The position numbers and the translations under genes were made by a program. Under the pieces are notes generated by a model. The model was not told the origin of the DNA and searched no databases. It saw nothing but the letters and a program-made list of their open reading frames with translations. Shown here one piece after another: positions 5,524 through 20,000 of a stretch of DNA of 20,000 nt. The DNA lies in the IMG/VR virus record IMGVR_UViG_3300032007_000033, positions 115,410 through 135,409 of that record. One strand, given 5' to 3'. Position 1 is the first letter of the stretch, and every line of letters starts with the position of its first letter. This DNA is from an uncultured virus (IMG/VR IMGVR_UViG_3300032007_000033) (Duplodnaviria; Heunggongvirae; Uroviricota; Caudoviricetes).

Positions 5524-6819
5524 ATGACAGAATCGGAAAGATTACTGAAAAACAACAAGATTTCTCAAACAAAACATGAAACTATTTCACGACATGAAAA
5601 GATGAATTGTCGTACATATACTTTTAAAATACAAGAAAATTCATTAAACAATCAACAAAAAGAATTTCTTAAAATGATTTTCATTGAACAAAAATGGTTG
5701 AAAAATTATATTCTAAATTGGTGCGAGCAAGACAAAGAAAATAAATTGACCAAATTTGACACCAAAATTACAAAAATAACACATAAAGATAAAGTTATGA
5801 ATGATGTTGAGGTAGAATTAAAATATCTATCCGCGCAATCAAAACAATGCCTTGTATCAAGAATGTATTCAAACATCAAAACTTTGCATACCTTAAAATC
5901 TAAAGGATTACAAAAATGTGGAAAATTAAAATATTCAAAAGAAGAAAAAATAATTGATTTGAAACAATACGGATGTTCGCATAAAATTATTTCAAAAAAT
6001 AGATTCAAAATAAGCGGATGTAAAAAACCATTCAAAGTAAATGGTATGAATCAATTTATAGAGATTCCAAACATAGAGTACGCCAACGCTAGATTGTTAA
6101 ACCGAGCAGACGGATGTTATGTTCAATTAGTCTGTTACATTCCTAAAGAAAATAAAATTAAAAACGAAAAAATAAATAAAACCATAGGTATTGATTTTGG
6201 TTGTTCTACATCTTTCACAACAAGTGAAGGTGAGAAAATTAATGTGTCAATTCAAGAAAGCGAGCGATTGAAGCGTTTGCAAAGGAAATTCGCTAGACAA
6301 ACAAAAGGCTCAAAGAATTGGCACAAAACATTAGAATTAATCAAAAAAGAATACCAAAAACAAACCAATCGAAAAGATGATATTTCCAACAAAATTATTC
6401 ACAAATTTTCACAATATAAAACGATTGTGATTCAAGACGAGCAATTAAAAAATTGGTCAAAAAATCATCATGGGAAGGCAATTCAACATTCAATTTTGGG
6501 AAGAGTGAAATCAAAATTAAAGACCAAAGAAAATGTCGTGATTTTGAGCAAAACTGTTCCCACCACAAAACTATGCACGAATTGTGGAGTTTATCACGAT
6601 GAATTGAAAGTTTGGGATAGAACTTTCAAATGTGAATGTGGTGTTGAAATGGACAGAGATGTTCACGCTTCAAAAAACATGGTTTGGTTTTATGAAAATA
6701 ATGTAGGTGTGGAACGCACCAATATTAAGCGTGTGGAGATGGAAGCACTAGTTCTTGGGGTTATTCGTAACTCAAAGAACCAACTTGTGTCGAAGAAGCA
6801 CGAAGCCTACTCCCTTTAG
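5524..6819 (+). CDS. tnpB: RNA-guided endonuclease TnpB
   Basis: RuvC-I IGIDFG, RuvC-II region IVIQDE, zinc finger CTNC...CEC, RuvC-III DRDVHASKN. Confidence 0.92.
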   Translation: MTESERLLKNNKISQTKHETISRHEKMNCRTYTFKIQENSLNNQQKEFLKMIFIEQKWLKNYILNWCEQDKENKLTKFDTKITKITHKDKVMNDVEVELKYLSAQSKQCLVSRMYSNIKTLHTLKSKGLQKCGKLKYSKEEKIIDLKQYGCSHKIISKNRFKISGCKKPFKVNGMNQFIEIPNIEYANARLLNRADGCYVQLVCYIPKENKIKNEKINKTIGIDFGCSTSFTTSEGEKINVSIQESERLKRLQRKFARQTKGSKNWHKTLELIKKEYQKQTNRKDDISNKIIHKFSQYKTIVIQDEQLKNWSKNHHGKAIQHSILGRVKSKLKTKENVVILSKTVPTTKLCTNCGVYHDELKVWDRTFKCECGVEMDRDVHASKNMVWFYENNVGVERTNIKRVEMEALVLGVIRNSKNQLVSKKHEAYSL

Positions 6820-7537: not shown

Positions 7538-8455
7538 CTAGAAATCGAACAATTCCTTTTTAGTCTGACTGTCCGCGACCTTTACGCAAGCGCAACCTCT
7601 TTTCTTGAATTCCTCTAAAAAGGACTTCCTCTTATCGTCATAAAAGTAGACGATTTCCGCCCCTTCCATTCCATCGAATGTTCCGTCGAGAATGTAGCGA
7701 ACATGCAGAAAGTTCTTGTAGTCGAACGGATAGGATTGAATCCCCAAATCGTGGCAACCAAAACACATGTCGTCCTCGTTTCTAGTTCCTCCGCATATCG
7801 CCTCGATGTAGAATTTATCCTTGTCGATGTAGGGCTTCAACGCGTCAATAATTCCCTTTCTGTCCAACTCGGACTCCACGACCAATATTCTGTGCGGTTT
7901 CTCGATGCAGTCCTTTCCCAAGTACCTAGCGGAAATCAATGAGCGGTTTATCCATTTGGATATGTTCTTTCCGTTGCTTCCGTCGCGAGAGTCGTAAATC
8001 TTGAACGGATATGACACCGAGTAAGGGTCTACTCCTTTCGGCAAATTCGTCTTCAAACACTCGCAACCCTTGGTGTATTTCTTCATCTCCTCTTTCATGA
8101 CTTTCCATGTCGGACGACTCTTGTAGTAGTTCTTCAACTTGAAGTGGGCGGTCTTACAGTAATATTTTTGTCCGTCGTTCAACATGACTTCTCCGCAGAA
8201 ATCGTTGAGGTGGACGCCTATTCCCATTCCTTGGTAGTCAGGCAACACGACAAGCCTATGACCCATGTAAAAATCACGAATGTCTCCGTTCGGCAAGAGC
8301 AACATCGCCCTAAAACCGACCAATATATCGCCCCAATAGCATATGAACACTCGGCAAGGAGCCAAATTCGCCTCTTGGGTCAAATAATGATATTGCCTAA
8401 ATATTTTCCAAAGGCCTTCCTTCTTTGAGTTGTCCGCGACCTCGTAGACGGACAA
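7538..8455 (-). CDS. GNAT-fold acyltransferase domain protein (probably the C-terminal part of an ATPase fusion)
   Basis: Acyl-CoA-binding motif HRLVVLPDYQGMGIG; FRQYHYL; weak independent start; reachable by a -1 shift from the upstream ATPase. Confidence 0.75.
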   Translation of the reverse strand: MSVYEVADNSKKEGLWKIFRQYHYLTQEANLAPCRVFICYWGDILVGFRAMLLLPNGDIRDFYMGHRLVVLPDYQGMGIGVHLNDFCGEVMLNDGQKYYCKTAHFKLKNYYKSRPTWKVMKEEMKKYTKGCECLKTNLPKGVDPYSVSYPFKIYDSRDGSNGKNISKWINRSLISARYLGKDCIEKPHRILVVESELDRKGIIDALKPYIDKDKFYIEAICGGTRNEDDMCFGCHDLGIQSYPFDYKNFLHVRYILDGTFDGMEGAEIVYFYDDKRKSFLEEFKKRGCACVKVADSQTKKELFDF

Positions 8456-10961: not shown

Positions 10962-11027
10962 AATTTTGTCTCTCCTAATGAATAAATTTTGATAAAATAG
11001 TTAAAAATTCATTGCTCAATCTAGTGG

Positions 11028-11354
11028 AACGGCTTTAATGAGTTTAAATTTGCCAACGACCAAAACGAATTAAGCGAGTGGTATGACTTCTACACCTACA
11101 ACAACGATTCTTGGGTTATGACTTCCGCTCCTTATGATGGATTTATAACCGCTATATCTAGAGGAAGTAATGGAGCAAGCATTAACATTTTTGTAAATGA
11201 TATAATTATAGCCGCCAATTCAAACGCAGATTATGGAATAAATGGTCAAGGTGAAGTTGCGTTTAGAAAGGGTGATAAGTTAGAGATTACTAGTTCTTTT
11301 AGGGATAAAGGTTACATCTGTTTCTACGAAAAGCGCGACTACTCCAACCGATAA
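11028..11354 (+). CDS. silent variable C-terminal cassette 1 (family A)
   Basis: Frame opens at the site: NGFNEFKFANDQNELSEW...PYDGF...FRKGD...YEKRDYSNR; no RBS/ATG. Confidence 0.88.
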   Translation, partial: NGFNEFKFANDQNELSEWYDFYTYNNDSWVMTSAPYDGFITAISRGSNGASINIFVNDIIIAANSNADYGINGQGEVAFRKGDKLEITSSFRDKGYICFYEKRDYSNR

Positions 11355-11366
11355 TCATTCAAGTGG

Positions 11367-11714
11367 AACGGTCATTATGAGTTATTGAAAATCACCACCG
11401 ATGAACAATGGACAGGTCGCTATTGGAACGATGGAAAGAAAATTTATACAAGAATGATATCCAACACAAAATCCTTTATGTATCATTCTTTTGTCGAATT
11501 ATTTTCATATTCAGATTATAATATAGATACATTAATCTCAGTTCAAGAAACTCCTTTTTCTAATAATATAGATAGTTATTTCTTTAAATGTAACGCTTAT
11601 GGATTTGATGTATCATTTGATAGGAAAGTTAGAGCGTGGAACACTTACACAGGTGGTTCTACAGTAACTAAATCATACATATTAATTATTGAATACACCA
11701 AAACATCTTCCTAA
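11367..11714 (+). CDS. silent cassette 2 (family B)
   Basis: NGHYELLKITTDEQWTGRYWNDGKKIY...IEYTKTSS. Confidence 0.88.
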   Translation, partial: NGHYELLKITTDEQWTGRYWNDGKKIYTRMISNTKSFMYHSFVELFSYSDYNIDTLISVQETPFSNNIDSYFFKCNAYGFDVSFDRKVRAWNTYTGGSTVTKSYILIIEYTKTSS

Positions 11715-11722
11715 TTTAGCGG

Positions 11723-12049
11723 AACGGATGGAATGAGTTCGTTAATAATTGCGAGTTAAGCGAGTGGGAAGAGATTTCACTGAGCACTAACTCAAGCAAT
11801 CCAACCGTTATGACTTATGACGGATTCTTAATTGTAAGAAGTCCGAGTGGCTCAGGTGGCACTATATATGTTAATGGGTCTCCTATTGCTAATGCAACAC
11901 ATAGCGGGTACGGCGGAACGACATATGAAGGTTCAAGCGCAACTATACCTGTTAAGAAAAACGACGAAATATACAAGATTGTTGGAATGGGGGATACAAA
12001 TCCATCCTTTGTGGCCTACTACAAGAAACGCGACTACTCAAACAGATAA
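11723..12049 (+). CDS. silent cassette 3 (family A)
   Basis: NGWNEFVNNCELSEWEEISLSTNSSNPTVMTYDGF...YYKKRDYSNR. Confidence 0.88.
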   Translation, partial: NGWNEFVNNCELSEWEEISLSTNSSNPTVMTYDGFLIVRSPSGSGGTIYVNGSPIANATHSGYGGTTYEGSSATIPVKKNDEIYKIVGMGDTNPSFVAYYKKRDYSNR

Positions 12050-12062
12050 CTCACTCTAACGG

Positions 12063-12371
12063 AACGGCTTTAATGAGTTCGTGAATAACTGCGAGTTGGG
12101 AGAGTTGGAAGATATAAGCATTCCAACAAGTCCGATAACCATAATGCTTTATGACGGAGTTTTTTTAGGCACTGCTAGTTCCACAGAACCTTATGTAATA
12201 GACATTTTAGATGAAAACAATCAAATAATATTCGCTTGTATAGGTGGAGGAAGTTGGGGAGACACTTTCACTTTTCCTTTTAACAAAGGGGATAGAATGC
12301 GATTAAGGCAAGGTACTCCACTCTATAAAAAAGTTCGTTACTACAAAAAACGAGATTATTCCAACCGATAA
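12063..12371 (+). CDS. silent cassette 4 (family A)
   Basis: NGFNEFVNNCELGEL...MLYDGV...YYKKRDYSNR. Confidence 0.88.
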   Translation, partial: NGFNEFVNNCELGELEDISIPTSPITIMLYDGVFLGTASSTEPYVIDILDENNQIIFACIGGGSWGDTFTFPFNKGDRMRLRQGTPLYKKVRYYKKRDYSNR

Positions 12372-12383
12372 TCGTTATAGCGG

Positions 12384-12668
12384 AACGGCTACAACAATCA
12401 ACAATGGGTTCCTGATTACAGCAACTTATTGAATCCAGGTTCAACATCTTTTCCGTATACAGCGTCAGAAGATTGTTTCGTGATGTATTTTTGGGGTGTA
12501 AATGGTCAGTTGAAGATAGACGGAAATGCTGTTTCATGTTATACATCGCCAAGCGGCGTGTCCAATACAGTATTTTTTGGCTTTGTGCGTAAGGGGTCTG
12601 TTTTATCGACCTCAGCATCGAGCTTATCAAACGACCAGTTCCGAGTTTTTGGCTTGAGCAAAGTGTGA
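12384..12668 (+). CDS. silent cassette 5 (family A-like, PDY subtype)
   Basis: NGYNNQQWVPDYSNLLNPGSTSFPYTASEDCF...VRKGS. Confidence 0.85.
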   Translation, partial: NGYNNQQWVPDYSNLLNPGSTSFPYTASEDCFVMYFWGVNGQLKIDGNAVSCYTSPSGVSNTVFFGFVRKGSVLSTSASSLSNDQFRVFGLSKV

Positions 12669-12707
12669 TTTTGAAAAAAAGATATTTTAGCTGCCTAAAC
12701 ATAGAAT

Positions 12708-13031
12708 TTAGGCGGTAGGAACAGATTTATAACCAATGGTTCTCCAATTACCTGATAAACCTGCGGGGCCAAACATTCTAAATCCTGTCGTCTTTTTATA
12801 ATAATAGGCAAGATTATACCAAGGTCCACCCATACTATTACCTGAATCTGTCATAATGGACATAGAAACATTATAATTTATGTCGTCATACTCCAAAGGT
12901 AAAACTATATCGCTACCAACAGACGCGGTATTCCATTGTTCAAGCCTTCCATCTTCATACCAAATATACGATGGAGTTCCGTCATGGTTTATTGAAATTT
13001 GGTGTATTTTATTTCTGTCATTATATCCGTT
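12708..13031 (-). CDS. silent cassette 6 (family C, gp53-like tail-fibre tip)
   Basis: NGYNDRNKIHQISINHDGTPSYIWYEDGRLEQWNTASVGSDIVLPLEYDD...WRTIGY. Confidence 0.85.
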   Translation of the reverse strand, partial: NGYNDRNKIHQISINHDGTPSYIWYEDGRLEQWNTASVGSDIVLPLEYDDINYNVSMSIMTDSGNSMGGPWYNLAYYYKKTTGFRMFGPAGLSGNWRTIGYKSVPTA

Positions 13032-13047
13032 CCGTTAGAGTGAGCGA

Positions 13048-13362
13048 TTATTTATGCGGAACAAAAAACACTCCGTGTATTGGCATACCCGTTTGAGGAC
13101 GGTAATTTGTCATAACAACAGTATCGCCTTTATTAACCTTAAACATACAATTCAAAAATGTTTCATAATAATTATTTGTGGAACTTGCGCAAAGAACATA
13201 CACACCGTTTATCTGTAAATGCGTGTTAGCATAAGCAGCAACCATACCGCACAATTCTATCCACCCATTGTCAAGAACGGTATAATTGCTCAAATCCGAT
13301 TCAGAAATTTCCGTTCTGTTTGTGTAATCAGGGTTGTTAAATCCTATCTCATCATAGCCGTT
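13048..13362 (-). CDS. silent cassette 7 (family A-like, PDY subtype)
   Basis: NGYDEIGFNNPDYTNRTEISESDLSNYTVLDNGW...VNKGDTV...FFVPHK. Confidence 0.85.
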   Translation of the reverse strand, partial: NGYDEIGFNNPDYTNRTEISESDLSNYTVLDNGWIELCGMVAAYANTHLQINGVYVLCASSTNNYYETFLNCMFKVNKGDTVVMTNYRPQTGMPIHGVFFVPHK

Positions 13363-13375
13363 CCGCTAGAGTGAG

Positions 13376-13705
13376 TTATCTGTTAGAGTAGTCGCGCTTC
13401 TTGTAGTAACGAACTAGAGTATTTCGAATGTATCTATCAAGTGAACAATAAATTGTGTCGCCTTTTTTAATAGCGAGTTGAAGGAAATATCCGTAACGAG
13501 GTGAATCAGAAGCAAACATATAAGTCAACGCTTTCCCATTAATAACCAATTTGTATTCCCCACTGTTATCACCTTCTCCCTTTATACAGTCGAAAGTAAT
13601 GAATCCATCATAATCCATCACAGTCGGATTGTTGGAGTCTGTTGATAGAGTTATTGTTTCCCAATCGCTTAATTCACAGTTATTCACGAAGTCGTTATAG
13701 CCGTT
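13376..13705 (-). CDS. silent cassette 8 (family A)
   Basis: NGYNDFVNNCELSDW...MDYDGF...YYKKRDYSNR. Confidence 0.88.
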   Translation of the reverse strand, partial: NGYNDFVNNCELSDWETITLSTDSNNPTVMDYDGFITFDCIKGEGDNSGEYKLVINGKALTYMFASDSPRYGYFLQLAIKKGDTIYCSLDRYIRNTLVRYYKKRDYSNR

Positions 13706-13716
13706 CCGTTAGAATA

Positions 13717-14028
13717 TCACAGATTTCCTTTTACGAAAATCGAAGCTTCTACTTGCAATTTTCCGTTTCCACTATCTCCATATTGTCCATCCCAAATCTT
13801 AAAACTACTTGTTGTCACTGTTCCGATGTTAGTATGATAAGTTCCATTTCGTGCAGAATTTCCCATAGTAAGAATGACAGGTATTGAAGAATATGTTTTA
13901 GGATAATTGACGATTGCCGTTCCAATAGGAGCGGTTCCTCGAAATTCAAGAACACCGTCTATTTCTTCGCAATACAAAGTAAAACTATTGGTGCTTGTAT
14001 CACTCCAACGCTTTACATAATGACCGTT
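13717..14028 (-). CDS. silent cassette 9 (family C)
   Basis: NGHYVKRWSDTSTNSFTLYCEEIDGVLEFRG...VNYPKTYSSIPVI...IFVKGNL. Confidence 0.85.
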   Translation of the reverse strand, partial: NGHYVKRWSDTSTNSFTLYCEEIDGVLEFRGTAPIGTAIVNYPKTYSSIPVILTMGNSARNGTYHTNIGTVTTSSFKIWDGQYGDSGNGKLQVEASIFVKGNL

Positions 14029-14040
14029 CCACTTGAATGA

Positions 14041-14349
14041 TTATCGGTTGGAGTAGTCGCGTTTCTTGTAAAAGCGGACTCTTGAATACAGACTTCCTGA
14101 ATGGACTATTCGGATTCCATCATTTTTTATGAATGGAATGAAACCAAAACCTGTTCCTCCTTCTGGTCTATTGTCGCTAATTTCATTGCCATTGACAAAA
14201 ATTTTTAAGGTGGATGAACTTGATTGCGAAGTAAAACATAGCAAGAAACCATCATAACTCATAACAGTCGGATTATTTGGGTCTGTGCTTATAGATATGT
14301 TTTCCCACTCGCTCAACTTGCAATTATTAACAAAATCATTGTAGCCGTT
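14041..14349 (-). CDS. silent cassette 10 (family A)
   Basis: NGYNDFVNNCKLSEW...MSYDGF...FYKKRDYSNR. Confidence 0.88.
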   Translation of the reverse strand, partial: NGYNDFVNNCKLSEWENISISTDPNNPTVMSYDGFLLCFTSQSSSSTLKIFVNGNEISDNRPEGGTGFGFIPFIKNDGIRIVHSGSLYSRVRFYKKRDYSNR

Positions 14350-14398
14350 CCCCTAAATTAAATAACGAAATTTCGGCTATAAAAAATTCAAAAAAGTA

Positions 14399-14427
14399 TT
14401 GATTTTTAACCGCCCTAGATGTAAAAT
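14399..14427 (+). promoter_or_regulatory. probable sigma70-type promoter
   Basis: TTGATT, 17 bp, TAAAAT, upstream of the AAGGAG RBS and ATG 14462. Confidence 0.6.
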
Positions 14428-14461
14428 CGCATCCAAACAATACATATGCAAGGAGAAATAT

Positions 14462-15559
14462 ATGAAAATTTCAACAAAACCCTTTTTGGAAAATCTGAAG
14501 TCAATCAACAATGTGGTTTCTGATTTCGTCTACATCGATTGCACCGACGCGTCGAACTACGCGTTCTATGTGTCCACAGACACCCAAGCGATGAAAATTC
14601 CGCTTGAGATTTCCGATGTTTCGGATGAGGAAAAACAAGTCTATGTAATCAACAAGGTCGAATTCATCCACTTGGTTTCCTACGCCAAGGAATTTGTGGA
14701 GTTGAATGCGGACTATTCTTACGAAGCCAATGATGGTCAAGTGAAGGGAAAATTCGAAAAAAACGAGGGCTACTCCGACGAATTGGAGTCTAGGAAAGTC
14801 CTTTTTGACAACGAAAGCGAATACAAAGATTTCATGGAAGTTACTCCATCAATAATGAACGCAATCACAAGCGGTGGAATTTTCGTATCGCCTGACTCAA
14901 TCAAGCCGTCTGAAAGATTCTTGGACATTCAACACTCAAAAGTTTTCTCATATTCAAACTACAAAATTTACATGGACGGCATCGACATGGATGAGGAAAA
15001 AGAAGGCCTTTTGTCAATCGAAGTCTTGAAATCAATCCAATCGTTGGGAATCGGAGCGGTGGTCAAGAGCAACAACGACTCGTATCTCTGCACCAACGCG
15101 CAAAGAAGCATTTTCGAGTATTTCTCGACTCCCAATGATGTGGACTTTCATCCGCTTTTTTCGGAAGGATTCCAAAACAAACTAAAGGAAACCAAATCTT
15201 TCAACAAAATCGAGTTCAACATCGAGGAATTGAAGGCCAAATTAGACTACCTCTCGTTCTACGCCAACAAAAACCCCAACAAAATGTGCTTCTTGAACGC
15301 CAAAAAAGACGGAAAATTTTTCATTTCCACGGATGAAAACACCTTCGTGGAGGTTTCCGCCAAAATCGAAAAAAAGGAGCAATTCGAGGACATGTCGGTT
15401 CCAGTGGATTGCTCTTCAATGCAGTTGATTTTGTCAAAGGTCGGCAAGGAAGCGGAAGTTTGGAACATGTACATTTCAAACGACCCTTCCAAGAAACTCA
15501 TCGTCACCACATTTGGAGACACGGAAGAAACCGTAATCTTGGCCAAACTCAATGTTTAA
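14462..15559 (+). CDS. 365-aa protein, possibly a divergent DNA polymerase beta sliding clamp
   Basis: Start at ATG 14462 (AAGGAG RBS). Length, acidity and segments (MKISTKPFLENLKSI, IEFNIEELKAKL, VPVDCSSMQLIL, C-terminal TVILAKL) echo the DnaN layout. The CDS is solid; the function is tentative. Confidence 0.5.
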   Translation: MKISTKPFLENLKSINNVVSDFVYIDCTDASNYAFYVSTDTQAMKIPLEISDVSDEEKQVYVINKVEFIHLVSYAKEFVELNADYSYEANDGQVKGKFEKNEGYSDELESRKVLFDNESEYKDFMEVTPSIMNAITSGGIFVSPDSIKPSERFLDIQHSKVFSYSNYKIYMDGIDMDEEKEGLLSIEVLKSIQSLGIGAVVKSNNDSYLCTNAQRSIFEYFSTPNDVDFHPLFSEGFQNKLKETKSFNKIEFNIEELKAKLDYLSFYANKNPNKMCFLNAKKDGKFFISTDENTFVEVSAKIEKKEQFEDMSVPVDCSSMQLILSKVGKEAEVWNMYISNDPSKKLIVTTFGDTEETVILAKLNV

Positions 15560-15566
15560 ATTGACG

Positions 15567-15598
15567 AAAGGCGGTCTTTTTATGAGACCGTCTTTTTT
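15567..15598 (+). terminator. intrinsic terminator
   Basis: AAAGGCGGTCT-loop-AGACCGTCTTTTTT. Confidence 0.8.
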
Positions 15599-15673
15599 AA
15601 ATTTAACTATATAAAATGGAAAGGCCGAATTCACGATTCGGCCAATTCATCAAACTATAATAGAGGTTATAGA

Positions 15674-16873
15674 ATGACTAAGAAAATAGTTAAGAAATGC
15701 GAAGAAATTAAAATCTCAAAATTAAAAATAAACAACAAGTTAAAGAATGTGCAATTTTTATTGAAGAAAGAAGTGTTTGAACGGATGTGCGTAATATCCG
15801 ACTCTTGCTCCGACTTGTCGATGGCGTATGTTCCTTGGGTAGGAAAGATAGCCACGATAAAGAAGTCTGACGGAAAGAAAGAGGATGTATGTTTCCTTGA
15901 GCCTTGCGCGGAAAACAACTACGCGGACATCTCGTTCTTCGACGGAACGAAATACAAAAACTTCAAGGCTTGCCGAGTTAGAACATTGGAATCCGTTCCG
16001 ATGGACGGAAGCCTTCTCACATACTCGAAAGGAACAATCTCAGACTCCAACTTTTTTGTTTTCTATAGCGTCATTCCTAGCGAAATGGGAAAAATTTTGA
16101 TGATGACCGCCAAGACTTATGAATTCTTGACATCCAACAACTTCAACAAGCATATTAGAATGTTTAACATCAATGACGCGGACAAGGTGAAGAAGGCGTT
16201 TAATTTGTCCGACCGACAAATGATTTCAATCGACTTCTCCAAGGAATTTACAATGCGAGGGGACGAGAGAAAGAACGCAAGCGACAAAAGAAACGCTTGC
16301 TTGAAAACCCTCGCCTTGATGAAAAAAATCGACGAACGAAAGCCTTGCTCCAACTTGCGCACTCACTACGGACTCCAATACTCTGCGTTCAACTTGATGA
16401 GCGGAGAGATTCGACAGTTCCGCGACGCGGTCGCTAGAAACAATTTCTTTGATTCGTTGAACATGAAACTCGCGGACAACCACAACATTCTCTTGAATTG
16501 CAAAAACATGAGAAAAATCGTCGAGGGCGATAAAGTCGAGTCATTTAGGGCGAACATATTTGAGAGCGGTTGGGTAGTGTGTGAGTACATCGCGGATATC
16601 GTTGAGTTAGCCAAGTTCGTGAAATCATTGGTCATGAAATTGCTCGAAAAATCCAAGAGAACCGCCAAAAAGTTGCGCGAGATTTTCTCGAAAGCCAAGA
16701 AAAATTTCTTCAACATAATCAACAAAATTATAGACACTACAACCAAGATGAAATTCAATCTGCGGAAAAAATTCTCGTTCGCTAGAACTATGAAACTCTT
16801 GGAGACTGTTGTCGACGAAAAATCGCATCCTCTAAATTTCAAACTCAAACTCAAATTCAACAATTTGTGTTGA
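15674..16873 (+). CDS. basic hypothetical protein (399 aa)
   Basis: Long ORF with GAGG RBS and a Lys/Arg-rich C-terminus; no family recognised. Confidence 0.75.
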   Translation: MTKKIVKKCEEIKISKLKINNKLKNVQFLLKKEVFERMCVISDSCSDLSMAYVPWVGKIATIKKSDGKKEDVCFLEPCAENNYADISFFDGTKYKNFKACRVRTLESVPMDGSLLTYSKGTISDSNFFVFYSVIPSEMGKILMMTAKTYEFLTSNNFNKHIRMFNINDADKVKKAFNLSDRQMISIDFSKEFTMRGDERKNASDKRNACLKTLALMKKIDERKPCSNLRTHYGLQYSAFNLMSGEIRQFRDAVARNNFFDSLNMKLADNHNILLNCKNMRKIVEGDKVESFRANIFESGWVVCEYIADIVELAKFVKSLVMKLLEKSKRTAKKLREIFSKAKKNFFNIINKIIDTTTKMKFNLRKKFSFARTMKLLETVVDEKSHPLNFKLKLKFNNLC

Positions 16874-17145
16874 GAAAACGATTTAATTTTCATCTAATTT
16901 CCAATCTTCTCTCTTCCATTCTTTAAAGAATCATTTTAAAGTTCGTCTCAATCATATGAAAAATTCTTTCAATTTCATTGAATAAATTTTTTTCTTTTGA
17001 ATTTTAAAGAAAAAATAATAAATTTTATTTTAAAAATTCTTTTTCTTTAAAAATTTTTTAACAATATAAGATACCTTGCTAATTAAAAATCCATTTTTCT
17101 TTTCATTTTTTCAAGAAAATTTAAAGAAAAAAATGAAATTTTAAA

Positions 17146-17766
17146 TTAGCGGAGTATCTTTTTAGGCTTCTTCATTTTAGAAAAATAAACAATGAATCTT
17201 TTCATCGTATTCCACCTTACATTATAAAACTTGGCCAAGGAATTCACGCTCTCGCCTTCCTTAAATCTTCTCATTATCTCTTTTTGGTAGGGTCGGAGTT
17301 TCACTCCGTAGACGATTTCTCCCTTCTGTCGTCCTATCTTCTTTCCGTTCTTCCTAGCGACTGCCAATCCTAATTTGGTTCTCTCGGATATCAAATCGCG
17401 TTCTATTTGGGCGGAAAGTCCGAACGCAAACAACATTACTGTGGCGGTAATATTGCTTTTATCCAATGGGTTTAAGTCAAAATTGTTCTTGATTGCTATG
17501 ATTCTGACTCCTCTTTCCGCTATTTTGCTTACAATTTCGAACACCATTTTAAAACTTCTTCCCAATCGCGAAATTTCAGTCATGACCAATACATCGCCTT
17601 CTTGCAATTGTTGAATCAGTTGGCCTAAAAGCCTTTTGTGATAGTCAACAGTTCCGCTTTTCTTCTCGTAAACCCATTTGTCGATTTTAAATTTTTCGGA
17701 AATTGCGTCTTGTTGATTTTCAAGATTTTGTTCTTGAGTTGACACTCTTAAATAACCGTAGTTCAT
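17146..17766 (-). CDS. serine recombinase (resolvase/invertase family); putative shufflon invertase
   Basis: YGYLRVST (catalytic Ser), EKKSG, GDVLVMTEISRLGRS, AQIERDLISERTKLGLAVARKNGKKIGR, C-terminal HTH (SVNSLAKFYNVRWNTM); AGGAG RBS. Confidence 0.95.
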   Translation of the reverse strand: MNYGYLRVSTQEQNLENQQDAISEKFKIDKWVYEKKSGTVDYHKRLLGQLIQQLQEGDVLVMTEISRLGRSFKMVFEIVSKIAERGVRIIAIKNNFDLNPLDKSNITATVMLFAFGLSAQIERDLISERTKLGLAVARKNGKKIGRQKGEIVYGVKLRPYQKEIMRRFKEGESVNSLAKFYNVRWNTMKRFIVYFSKMKKPKKILR

Positions 17767-17795
17767 GTAAAACTCCTTTTTAATTGATTGACAAT

Positions 17796-17836
17796 CTTAT
17801 ACAATATATTTTTATTTTTGTCAAGTAAAATTATCA
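17796..17836 (-). promoter_or_regulatory. invertase promoter
   Basis: TTGACA (17824-17819), 17 bp, TATAAG; 21-bp block identical to 4666-4686. Confidence 0.7.
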
Positions 17837-17861
17837 TTTTTTTTTATATCCAATCTAGTCG

Positions 17862-18230
17862 AACGGTTGGAATGACTTCGTGAATAATTGCGAGTTGGGT
17901 GATATAGAAGATTACACAAACATAATTCCGCATGAAACAAGTGTGCCACAAAATTATTACACGGCGGAATACGATGGGTTTGTTGAGATTTCATTTGGGT
18001 CTAGTTCAACAACATCAAGGACAAAAACCTACTTGATAATTAACAACACCATCGTAGGATATGGAGGAACAGTCGGATATTTGAATAATTGCGGAGAAAC
18101 AGGAGGAAATATATGTGCTCCTGTCAAGAAAAATGATGAAATTAAAGTAACAACAATTACAAGTCCAACTTATTTTGAATTCAAAATTTATTGTAGATTT
18201 TATAAACTTAGAGATTATTCTAACAGATAA
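17862..18230 (+). CDS. silent cassette 11 (family A)
   Basis: NGWNDFVNNCELGDIEDY...EYDGF...PVKKND...FYKLRDYSNR. Confidence 0.88.
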   Translation, partial: NGWNDFVNNCELGDIEDYTNIIPHETSVPQNYYTAEYDGFVEISFGSSSTTSRTKTYLIINNTIVGYGGTVGYLNNCGETGGNICAPVKKNDEIKVTTITSPTYFEFKIYCRFYKLRDYSNR

Positions 18231-18243
18231 CTCACTCTAGCGG

Positions 18244-18597
18244 AACGGCCAAGTTGAGTTGCTTGGTTATTCGACAGAAGAGAGATGGACGGGCAAATAT
18301 TGGACTGACGGAAAAAAGATATATTCAAAAACATTTAGTGTAACTGCTAGCGGTGATTATACATTAAATAATGTTGACACTGTTATAAACTTTGAAGCCA
18401 CCGCTTTGAATAACAATTCATATTGGAGACCCTGTGACGGATTCTTAACTACTCTTGGGAGCAACCAAATAAACGGAACTACCATTGATGTTAATTATGC
18501 AGCAAACAAATTCCATATCGGCTACTTGGGAGAAGGTATGGGATATACATTCACAAAGGCCAATGTAACAGTTTATTACACTAAGACCACAGACTAG
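18244..18597 (+). CDS. silent cassette 12 (family B)
   Basis: NGQVELLGYSTEERWTGKYWTDGKKIY...YYTKTTD. Confidence 0.88.
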   Translation, partial: NGQVELLGYSTEERWTGKYWTDGKKIYSKTFSVTASGDYTLNNVDTVINFEATALNNNSYWRPCDGFLTTLGSNQINGTTIDVNYAANKFHIGYLGEGMGYTFTKANVTVYYTKTTD

Positions 18598-18600
18598 CGG

Positions 18601-18739
18601 TTGACAAAACCGCATTACTAGCCTTATAATGCCATTATTCGGGTGTGTTGACCCATTTGCACAGATGTGTCAAACCAACAAATAATCCTTGCGGAGACAT
18701 CACGGCACTGCGAATGCCGTCTTCGCAAGGATTTTTTTT
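18601..18739 (+). ncRNA. putative small structured RNA with its own promoter and terminator
   Basis: TTGACA (18601), 18 bp, TATAAT (18625-18630); hairpin TTGAC-CATTTG/CAGATG-GTCAA; long hairpin AATCCTTGCG...ACGGCA/TGCCGT...CGCAAGGATT followed by a U run. Confidence 0.55.
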
Positions 18740-19082
18740 AGCGGTTGGAGTAGTCGCGCTTTTTGTAAAAATTGCCAAAAGATTTAAAACTTCCAGCTTC
18801 AAGGCGTGTCAAAGAGCAATAAACTGAATCCCCTTTTGAAATTGCCAATGATTGTGAAACAGTAAAATTATAAAGTGATGAAACATTGTAATTATCAAAA
18901 AAATCAACTCCATTTATGTAAATGTGAAAATCTGAACCATTGCCTCCAGTTCCTGTTGTATTGAATCCTGCTCTTATGAATCCGTCATAATCCATTATTG
19001 TCGGATTATTGGGGTCAGTTGATAAAGTTATGTTTTCCCAACCGTCCAACTCACAATTATTAACGAAGTCGTTATGGCCGTT
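18738..19082 (-). CDS. silent cassette 13 (family A)
   Basis: NGHNDFVNNCELDGW...MDYDGF...FYKKRDYSNR. Confidence 0.88.
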   Translation of the reverse strand, partial: NGHNDFVNNCELDGWENITLSTDPNNPTIMDYDGFIRAGFNTTGTGGNGSDFHIYINGVDFFDNYNVSSLYNFTVSQSLAISKGDSVYCSLTRLEAGSFKSFGNFYKKRDYSNR

Positions 19083-19090
19083 CCGCTATA

Positions 19091-19831
19091 TTATAACTCT
19101 CGTTCTTTGTAGAACCGAGCTGAAAACATAGAAGTAGCAGAATCTGTTGGACCAATCATTTGAATTGAAAAAATATCACCCTTACTTACATAAGTGGAAT
19201 AAGAAAATTTATTAGCACTTCCACTTGTCGAAAAAATTTCAATTCCATTAATTGTTATACTTCTGTTATAAGATGTTTCAATTCCAAAATATAAAAAACC
19301 GTCGTAAGGACATACATAAGGAAAATAATTTGAAAATCGAGTATCTGCCCACGTATAGATTACTTCCACTTCGCTCAAATGCTCGCTCTCGCTTTGGCCG
19401 TTCGCATAGATTGAGTAAGTCGTTGATGAGAGGACTAATGGGTTACCAATAACCACAAACGCAGGATTTCCGCTTCCGTCGTCGCTCGTGTAATACATCT
19501 CCAACACAGTGTTGGGGTCGAGAACTTTGTACACAGTCGTTCCGCTTTCATCCATCGCGTGAATGGGAAGCGGTTGCAAAGTTCCGTTCACATTCGCGTC
19601 GACTTGAATTCCGTTCAAAGTCATGTAGTCAGTAGAGTTGGAGGCGTCGTGTCCTTGCGAGAACACTACCTTGAACGCCAAGTTGGTGTCAGGCGCGCTC
19701 TCGTCAAATCCCAACGGAAAAGTGACGCTCTTGGCCGAGCCTTTCGCTTGGCTCGCGATTAAAACATTTCCGAATCCGCATAAAGAGTAGTCCTTGTTCG
19801 TGGCTTCCTTCTTGAATGAATCTATGTACAT
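19091..19831 (-). CDS. expressed shufflon gene: 143-aa constant region plus cassette 14; probable tail-fibre/receptor-binding protein
   Basis: AGGAGG RBS and ATG. A crossover site is read in frame as SIYA-NG-QSE at 19389-19414. The C-terminal part (PYDGF...ING...VSKGD...RFYKER) is homologous to the silent family A cassettes. Confidence 0.88.
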   Translation of the reverse strand: MYIDSFKKEATNKDYSLCGFGNVLIASQAKGSAKSVTFPLGFDESAPDTNLAFKVVFSQGHDASNSTDYMTLNGIQVDANVNGTLQPLPIHAMDESGTTVYKVLDPNTVLEMYYTSDDGSGNPAFVVIGNPLVLSSTTYSIYANGQSESEHLSEVEVIYTWADTRFSNYFPYVCPYDGFLYFGIETSYNRSITINGIEIFSTSGSANKFSYSTYVSKGDIFSIQMIGPTDSATSMFSARFYKEREL

Positions 19832-19914
19832 ATTGTTCCTCCTAAAATTCTACAAATAAAATAGTTAATGTTTTGGGATTTTAGATGAAAAAATTCGGTT
19901 AGTCAATCTATGCG

Positions 19915-20000
19915 AACGGTTGGAATGACTTCGTGAATAATTGCGAGTTGGGTGATATAGAAGATTACACAAACATAATTCCGCATGAAACAAGTGTGCC
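19915..20000 (+). CDS. cassette 15 (partial; identical to the start of cassette 11)
   Basis: 19913-20000 is identical to 17860-17947. Confidence 0.8.

Follow-up and report, generated by a model that had tools for sequence, protein, structure and literature searches.

A promoter-bearing constant module flanked by cassette arrays in a cattle-gut phage, and the case that it may itself be inverted

Programmed inversion of tail-fibre genes is a textbook form of host-range hedging in phages, and the cases known to us offer two to a handful of alternative tips, read from a constant part that stays fixed. The locus described here raises the question of whether the constant part can itself be turned. 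It lies in a 20,000-nt stretch (hereafter the window, meaning the whole stretch analysed) that comprises the last 20 kb, positions 115,410 to 135,409, of the linear 135,409-bp virus record IMGVR_UViG_3300032007_000033, rated 64% complete, with window position 20000 at the contig end. The locus appears to contain one tail-fibre-like gene with about 20 alternative tips in three convergent arrays, in a layout that works only with an expression head that can turn. We consider it likely that this is a multiple-inversion system of the Gin/Hin type, which swaps the C-terminal ~100 residues of the protein and in which the constant module can turn.

The public runs containing the stretch are bovine gut metagenomes, and the host phage is a large cattle-gut phage of roughly 212 kb. 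Two independent assemblies break inside or beside the module: the contig of the window (G000) at 20000, and a 79.7-kb contig of the same phage (L017) at window-equivalent 19843. The two lengths (135.4 kb and 79.7 kb) give ~212 kb in total, in agreement with the 64% completeness estimate.

A preliminary description of this DNA reported a perfect 17-bp inverted repeat, and the repeat is confirmed. The sequence TCAATCTATGCGAACGG occurs without mismatch in exactly two copies in the window, at 19398–19414 (− strand) and 19903–19919 (+ strand), with the arms facing outward. Allowing up to three mismatches yields four matches in the window versus 0.02 expected, a number reached in none of 200 shuffles; the remaining two matches are sites a1 (11016–11032) and A (17850–17866). 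An exact scan with the 17-mer returned 36 metagenome and five viral stretches, of which only L031, L017/L018, L014/L015/L036/L044, and L045 are related to the locus; the others were dropped. The key relative, L031, is a metagenome contig of 10,268 nt that is identical to window positions 12061–19928, extends 2,380 nt beyond them, and is identical to L017 across 1,602 nt. The 17-mer also has nine single matches in GTDB genomes; neither the constant part nor the invertase has a relative there by tblastn, and these matches were read as chance. An exact scan of IMG/VR with a 23-mer comprising the promoter flank and site C gave no matches.

Each copy of the 17-mer belongs to a 26-bp crossover site (12 nt, AA, 12 nt), and the window contains a family of 15 such sites. 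Specifically, crossover site B (19389–19414, − strand, 26 bp) has a left half, TCAATCTATGCG, that encodes the S-I-Y-A of the constant part, a core AA, and a right half, CGGCCAAAGCGA, that begins the expressed cassette, while crossover site C (19903–19928, + strand, 26 bp) has the same left half as B, a core AA, the right half CGGTTGGAATGA, and an in-frame TAG four codons upstream; 19389 and 19928, the limits given in the preliminary description, are thus the outer ends of the two complete sites. The motif CTANNSGAACGG has 20 matches in the window versus 1.23 expected. Between 10.9 and 20 kb the core is matched 17 times, and 15 of these matches were accepted as sites; the match at 13923 was excluded as it is out of frame within cassette a9 with seven open codons, and the match at 15999 as it lies inside an ORF (15674–16873) and has no half-site pattern. 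Matches at 7718, 8286, and 11420 were also left out of the site count. All 15 sites in the window are followed by a cassette that is open in the NG frame (core read as Asn-Gly): 14 cassettes are complete, with 94–122 codons, and the fifteenth, after site C, is cut by the contig end after 28 codons. The probability of 94 open codons arising by chance is 0.008 per site.

Alignment of 20 sites (those of the window plus six from L031) reveals an AA core followed by CGG in every one. The information content is restricted to 26 columns, and dyad symmetry is maximal at the AA core, with 136 of 240 complementary positions versus 30–80 at 15 other centres. The hix, gix, and cix sites have the same 12-2-12 geometry; the half-site sequence at this locus differs from that of gix and hix. 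Site orientation is set by the asymmetric AA core. Silent cassettes have a stop codon (TAG or TAA) within or immediately before every site; the exceptions are sites C and D, which carry a copy of the S-I-Y-A codons of the constant part and have a stop four or seven codons upstream.

The cassettes fall into three groups, with ten at 11.0–14.4 kb, four at 17.85–19.4 kb, and six beyond the window in L031. Array 1 (11016–14361) contains + strand sites at 11026, 11365, 11721, 12061, and 12382 and − strand sites at 13033, 13364, 13707, 14030, and 14351, and an in-frame cassette of 94–115 codons comes after each of them. Array 2 comprises site A with silent cassette A (17850–18230, +, 122 codons), site A2 with silent cassette A2 (18232–18597, +, 117 codons), site B2 with silent cassette B2 (18738–19094, −, 114 codons), and cassette B (19091–19402, −, 103 codons from NG to stop), which supplies the C-terminal part that is expressed in the arrangement of the window. 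Array 3, in L031, contains + strand sites C, c2, and c3 and − strand sites D, c5, and c6, with cassettes Z, c2, c3, D, c5, and c6 of 113, 102, 114, 96, 118, and 102 codons, all open in the NG frame. The preliminary description had suggested looking beyond the window for more cassettes, and this six-cassette right array is what lies there. The constant part is therefore inside the cassette field, as L031 carries a third array to the right of site C. The 20 cassettes form eight sequence families with a maximum pairwise identity of 51%; three families are shared between arrays, and three array-3 cassettes belong to families that are also present in arrays 1 and 2.

The convergent junctions of arrays 2 and 3 hold further elements. 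In array 2, the + strand of window 18601–18735 contains a perfect σ70 consensus (TTGACA-18 nt-TATAAT, 12/12) and, about 75 nt past it, a strong hairpin with a T run (−37.6 kcal/mol, z −4.4, with none of 200 shuffles as stable). The element may specify a ~100-nt RNA that inverts along with the segment; a search of the whole window against Rfam at gathering scores, the 18601–18735 hairpin included, gave no match. The corresponding place in array 3, the convergent junction on the reverse strand of L031 (window-equivalent 20987–21187), is occupied by an ORF of 66 codons that has a C-terminal hydrophobic stretch and an upstream TTGACA...TATAAT. Array 1 contains a 63-nt inverted repeat (11317–11379 and 14016–14078, 90% complementary) that comprises cassette tail and sites a2 and a9 and is of sufficient length for homologous exchange in addition to site-specific exchange.

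Between sites B and C lies the constant module, and its anatomy is as the preliminary description had it, with the outward arms enclosing a promoter motif, a ribosome-binding site, and 143 constant codons. The constant part (19403–19831, −) starts with an ATG at 19831, ends in ...VLSSTTYSIYA, and contains an N-terminal domain shared with tail-fibre-like proteins. Joined to cassette B, it forms the expressed ORF (19091–19831, −) of 246 aa. A ribosome-binding site, AGGAGG (19843–19838, −), read directly, is positioned 6 nt ahead of the ATG. Upstream is a promoter-like sequence, TTGACT-17 nt-TAAAAT (19906–19878, −), that has 10 of 12 consensus matches; a promoter scan found seven such sites in the region versus 7.6 expected, so the match by itself proves nothing. 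The entire element and the ribosome-binding site are within the crossover points, and the promoter would therefore move with the module. The four innermost nucleotides of the left half of site C are shared with the −35 hexamer, so that binding of the invertase might gate expression during recombination as well.

The N-terminal domain of the constant part is common to 60 homologues of 159–417 aa, 14 of which have a precomputed assignment to PF07484 (phage tail collar). The pattern GNP.VLSS..Y.IYA.G is invariant in 40 of 40 aligned homologues, and the crossover site therefore falls on the domain boundary of the protein family. The same domain ends proteins of ~2450 aa in the related stretches L009 and L010 (57% identity to the constant part for the 2454-aa protein of L009); the ~2450-aa J-like protein, which contains collagen-like repeats, is matched by PHROG 31 ('central tail fiber J'). 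Pfam and PHROGs searches with the constant-plus-cassette protein, two cassettes, and two inter-array ORFs returned no family, and when the 246-aa protein was modelled with AlphaFold (mean pLDDT 76) and compared with the PDB by Foldseek, nothing matched at E ≤ 0.001. The highest-ranking but weak rows of that search (C1q/TNF-like jelly rolls, carbohydrate-binding modules, and fibre ends) were set aside. Because neither family nor significant fold matches were obtained, the target protein is assigned to the tail-fibre or receptor-binding type by homology only, and its role in receptor binding is correspondingly putative.

A small serine DNA invertase is predicted between arrays 1 and 2 (17146–17766, −, 206 aa), with the N-terminus MNYGYLRVST containing Ser9. 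It matches Pfam PF00239 (E 1.3e-32, residues 3–143) and PHROG 125, 'DNA invertase' (E 3.3e-45), and among solved structures its best relatives are 4m6f (E 2.7e-18) and 3uj3 (E 1.3e-17), both chains bearing the name 'DNA-invertase' and taken here to be Mu Gin. Judged by these matches, the recombinase is a Gin-like small serine invertase; it is the only recombinase encoded between the arrays and is of the serine type. Its start codon (17766) is 84 nt from the start of site A (17850). Upstream of the gene, at 17816–17836, is one copy of a 21-nt repeat, D8, that also occurs at window 3243, 4666, and 9160 and reads TTGACA, a 17-nt spacer, and TATAA on the minus strand; the D8 copies are probably a set of early promoters, and the TTGACA-17-TATAA upstream of the invertase gene would drive the invertase. 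Enzymes of the Gin/Hin type require an enhancer plus host Fis or HU, which counts as a reservation about the system proposed below, and dependence on supercoiling is a property of the class.

To the right of array 3, L017 1–8536 encodes a DNA polymerase, two methyltransferase-like proteins, and a pyrimidine-dimer glycosylase, and the tail-fibre switch thus sits among DNA-metabolism genes and not in a tail module. The locus stands as an island amid replication genes, a setting consistent with a self-contained expression module. Elsewhere in the window, at 5524–6819 (+), a 431-aa ORF with OrfB_IS605 and Cas12f1-like TNB domains is TnpB-like and lies within the phage.

Site C bounds the module on its promoter side. 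A reading in which the 19903 site and the sequence after it are an assembly chimera, with no true site upstream of the promoter, draws on the fact that the window ends, at the contig end, in a self-repeat (19904–20000 versus 17851–17947, 98% identity) of the kind typical of tangled assembly graphs. We regard this reading as highly improbable. In particular, positions 19832–19928 are identical in the independent contig L031, the junction of the C left half with the promoter flank is present again in L017 (86 nt, 98.8%), and the same junction is found in all four public runs, from three studies, that were examined as Logan contigs (X1, 19397–19928; X2, 19374–19919; X3, 19399–19932; X5, 19397–19919). 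Moreover, the end of the constant part and the C flank share just 17 nt, which we estimate to be shorter than the usual assembler k-mer sizes. The preliminary description had allowed for a chimera at 19903; the recurrence of site C in L031, L017, and the Logan contigs of four of four runs speaks for a genuine site. Two of the runs, X3 and X5, represent related strains, and these retain the site-bounded module with 19 and 9 letter differences, respectively, over about 530.

Comparison of the assemblies reveals alternative natural arrangements that are related by inversion. The left half of site C stays with the promoter flank in every case and has three partners in three assemblies: cassette Z in L031, cassette c3 in L017, and cassette A in the window. 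The order of parts in L017 is two inversions from that in L031 (C × c6, then c3 × C). X5 contains opposite-strand joints at 11026/14352 (sites a1/a10) and at 13032/17847 (sites a6/A), the latter turning 4.8 kb that includes the invertase gene, and X3 contains an opposite-strand joint at 11079/19047. In addition, contigs stop at or near the module ends in all four runs (X2 and X5 at 19919; X3 at 19932; X1 at 19397 and ~19942). From the partners of C, the X5 joints, and the contig stops at the module ends, it follows that the system is active, works across arrays, and includes site C. At its far end, L031 joins the a1 left half (window-equivalent 11006–11044) to the a4 cassette (12078), skipping three cassettes; since a1 and a4 are direct sites, this junction is either a deletion variant or the product of a contig that mixes isomers.

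In the mechanism that we propose, the small serine invertase would recombine the 26-bp sites and so exchange the C-terminal ~100 residues of the ~246-aa protein, the codons S-I-Y-A-N-G at the end of the constant part being themselves the crossover site; we infer that crossover occurs at the AA core. Recombination of site B with a + strand site on the left would invert cassettes and leave the constant part unmoved, recombination of B with C would turn the 0.5-kb module and direct its reading rightwards, into array 3, and recombination of B with the next + strand sites on the right would turn the module together with cassettes. The preliminary description had proposed that a flip of about 0.5 kb re-aims expression from the left cassette to the right one. 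In support of this, a flip would fuse SIYA-NG in frame to the right cassette; the flipped state itself was not seen, and the 0.5-kb flip is the smallest of several, as B × c2 and B × c3 would also turn the constant part. The right cassette visible in the window is a cut copy of the head of cassette A, and the resident right cassette is Z in L031. The further proposal that a flip makes cassettes of either orientation reachable is unnecessary, as nested inversions reach the six oppositely oriented cassettes on the left in two steps with the constant part unturned.

The evidence that bears most directly on turning is at the window end. The cassette head joined to the left half of C (19915–20000, +), truncated where the contig ends, is letter for letter that of cassette A (17862–17947), whereas in L031 cassette Z (113 codons) is the resident after site C. 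We read the window end as a recombinant junction between the left half of C and the right half of A; it is present in the last 72 nt of one contig only. Cassette A is on the constant-part side in L031 and is at 17860 in the window. Because left halves stay with their flanks, an inversion that spans the module is needed to produce this junction if only inversions act. To follow the consequences, we enumerated every arrangement within two inversions of the L031-type order, which gave 100 plus 5,986 new states. The constant part is turned in 24 of the 24 states that contain the C–A junction, and 16 of these 24 give the local order of the window (cassette B, constant part, promoter, C left half, cassette A). 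Two inversions or fewer suffice to reach every one of the 20 cassettes, and the six of array 3 require a turned constant part at minimum depth. Since cassette A is also present at 17860, the contig of the window has either to combine at least two isomers or to contain a duplication of A, and a duplication is unlikely because no pair of cassettes exceeds 51% identity.

The same junction could have a second origin, namely a deletion between the direct sites A and C that releases a 2,053-bp circle or forms a tandem, in which case it would be uninformative on flipping. The repeats 17851–17947 and 19904–20000 are indeed direct and 2,053 nt apart, the circle junction would read the same as the window end, and the far end of L031 joins the left half of a1 to the right half of a4, direct sites, in a deletion-like manner. 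Against this, the invertases of the family strongly prefer inversion over deletion, an excised circle would have no origin and what remains of the genome would be left without the constant part, and the a1–a4 junction could also come from an isomer-mixing contig. We therefore judge an origin by deletion improbable, and, even if it were correct, array 3 would still need a turned constant part.

A third reading is that the constant part is immobile in practice: site C and array 3 shuffle alone, as an unused or decaying store or in the service of another constant part, and the C–A junction is a true second copy of A, through strain variation or a recent duplication. Consistent with this, the only fully documented rearrangements of C, those between L017 and L031, are inversions inside array 3 that leave the module unturned relative to the right flank. 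Likewise, no flipped contig or read was seen, and the opposite-strand joint expected of one (19414/19902) is absent among the joints listed in the Logan contigs, although these contigs are unable to show the flipped state. The alignment of one X3 record (record 23) stops exactly at 19414 with 12 letters over, a hint that would fit a flipped module. A second constant part could be encoded outside the 135 kb and the 11 kb of L017 that were examined, the record being ~64% complete; by tblastn, however, the 135-kb contig has one copy of the constant part and L017 none. The six array-3 cassettes are all open in the NG frame, and three are in families shared with arrays 1 and 2. Sites B and C have the same left halves and the same AA core in inverted orientation, and we know of no mechanism that would exempt them from recombination. 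Finally, the 88-nt duplicate of A is 100% identical, versus the 51% maximum among the 20 cassettes, and cassette A is present only once in L031. An immobile constant part is thus, in our judgement, unlikely, if less so than an origin of the junction by deletion.

Taking the recombinant junction and the intact right array together, we conclude that the idea of a flipping constant module is very probably right. A fuller version, towards which we lean with some caution, is that the 0.5-kb module of promoter and anchor domain is a two-way reading head that flips naturally at appreciable frequency, is expressed in both orientations, and gives access to 20 receptor-binding tips through nested inversions, and that it is the first system of the Gin/Hin type with the constant part, and not the variable part alone, as the invertible unit.

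Comparison with five related stretches places the locus among simpler relatives. L010 and L014 are two-site systems and L009 is a four-site system, each with the constant part at one end and the invertase gene beside the segment; in L045, a short constant ORF stands behind another gene, with no upstream site, and L011 has no inversion system. An embedded constant part is present in none of the five. The outer site of L010 and of L014 carries a repeat of the constant part's left half, as do C and D at the studied locus, and a flipped module would recreate the canonical order, with the constant part followed by a segment between the identical left halves of B and D.

The locus shares with the Gin/Hin/Cin/Pin/Min class a small serine recombinase (206 aa, resolvase domain, Ser9), 26-bp sites with imperfectly symmetric 12-bp halves and an identical asymmetric 2-bp core in 20 of 20 sites, and an invertase gene beside a crossover site (84 nt from A). 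As in Min (p15B), Gin (Mu), Cin (P1), and Pin (e14), the C-terminus of a putative tail-fibre-type protein would be exchanged in frame, with a small serine invertase encoded alongside, and, as in Min, several sites allow many isomers. Min has only six sites, and the locus differs from all four in having 20 cassettes in three arrays over ~11 kb, with ordinary genes, including that of the invertase, between the arrays, and in lacking a tail-fibre assembly gene beside the cassettes. It also differs in the position of the constant 5′ part and promoter, which in Gin, Cin, Pin, and Min are outside the invertible segment at one end and here are embedded between arrays with sites on both sides. Hin, which turns a ~1-kb promoter-bearing H-segment in Salmonella as an on/off switch for one operon, resembles the locus in that the same enzyme family turns a short promoter-carrying segment; Hin is not known to have a coding 5′ part fused to alternative 3′ parts or cassette arrays. 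In the sapA system of Campylobacter fetus, one promoter segment between oppositely oriented cassettes inverts alone or with cassettes; recombination there is RecA-dependent and proceeds through long conserved 5′ regions, with no dedicated invertase or short sites known, and the moving piece, unlike the module described here, is not known to carry a coding constant part. Strict shufflons (R64/IncI, with the tyrosine recombinase Rci acting at sfx sites in pilV) differ from the locus in recombinase type (serine here) and in target, which here is tail-fibre-like and not PilV.

The Rin shufflon of Bifidobacterium prophages comprises, according to an excerpt of PMC6109161, a constant N-terminal part of a receptor-binding gene and several variable C-terminal cassettes with short crossover sites, with isomers found in sequence data, and is likened there to Min. 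Rin is a tyrosine recombinase that acts on 11-bp sites, and the cassettes are located between the constant part and the recombinase gene; a serine invertase and an embedded constant part set the studied locus apart. The excerpt of PMC6109161 and the relatives L009, L010, L014, L045, and L011 agree with the statement of the preliminary description that the constant part is fixed in Gin and Cin, and the same applies to Min and Rin. In PMC9881135, the inversion targets listed include phage tail genes, and the scan is stated to be limited to bacterial species, without viruses. Searches of open-access literature turned up no account of a serine invertase acting on a tail-fibre gene whose constant part is embedded.

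The nearest logic is that of the vsa locus of Mycoplasma pulmonis and the vpma locus of M. agalactiae, which work by the same 'reading head' principle with recombinases of the tyrosine type. In vsa, as an excerpt of PMC4534519 describes it, an expression site containing a promoter and N-terminal coding DNA is recombined into silent genes by site-specific inversions. The vsa and vpma systems differ from the present locus in that their targets are bacterial surface lipoproteins and not phage genes, and in having no Gin-type invertase or 12-2-12 sites. If confirmed, a turning constant module would account for both examined assemblies of this large phage breaking at the module, would provide a compact natural model for multi-state DNA switches, and would widen the known design space of serine-invertase systems; one phage locus would combine the moving promoter of Hin, the C-terminus exchange of Gin and Min, and the expression-site logic of the mycoplasmas.
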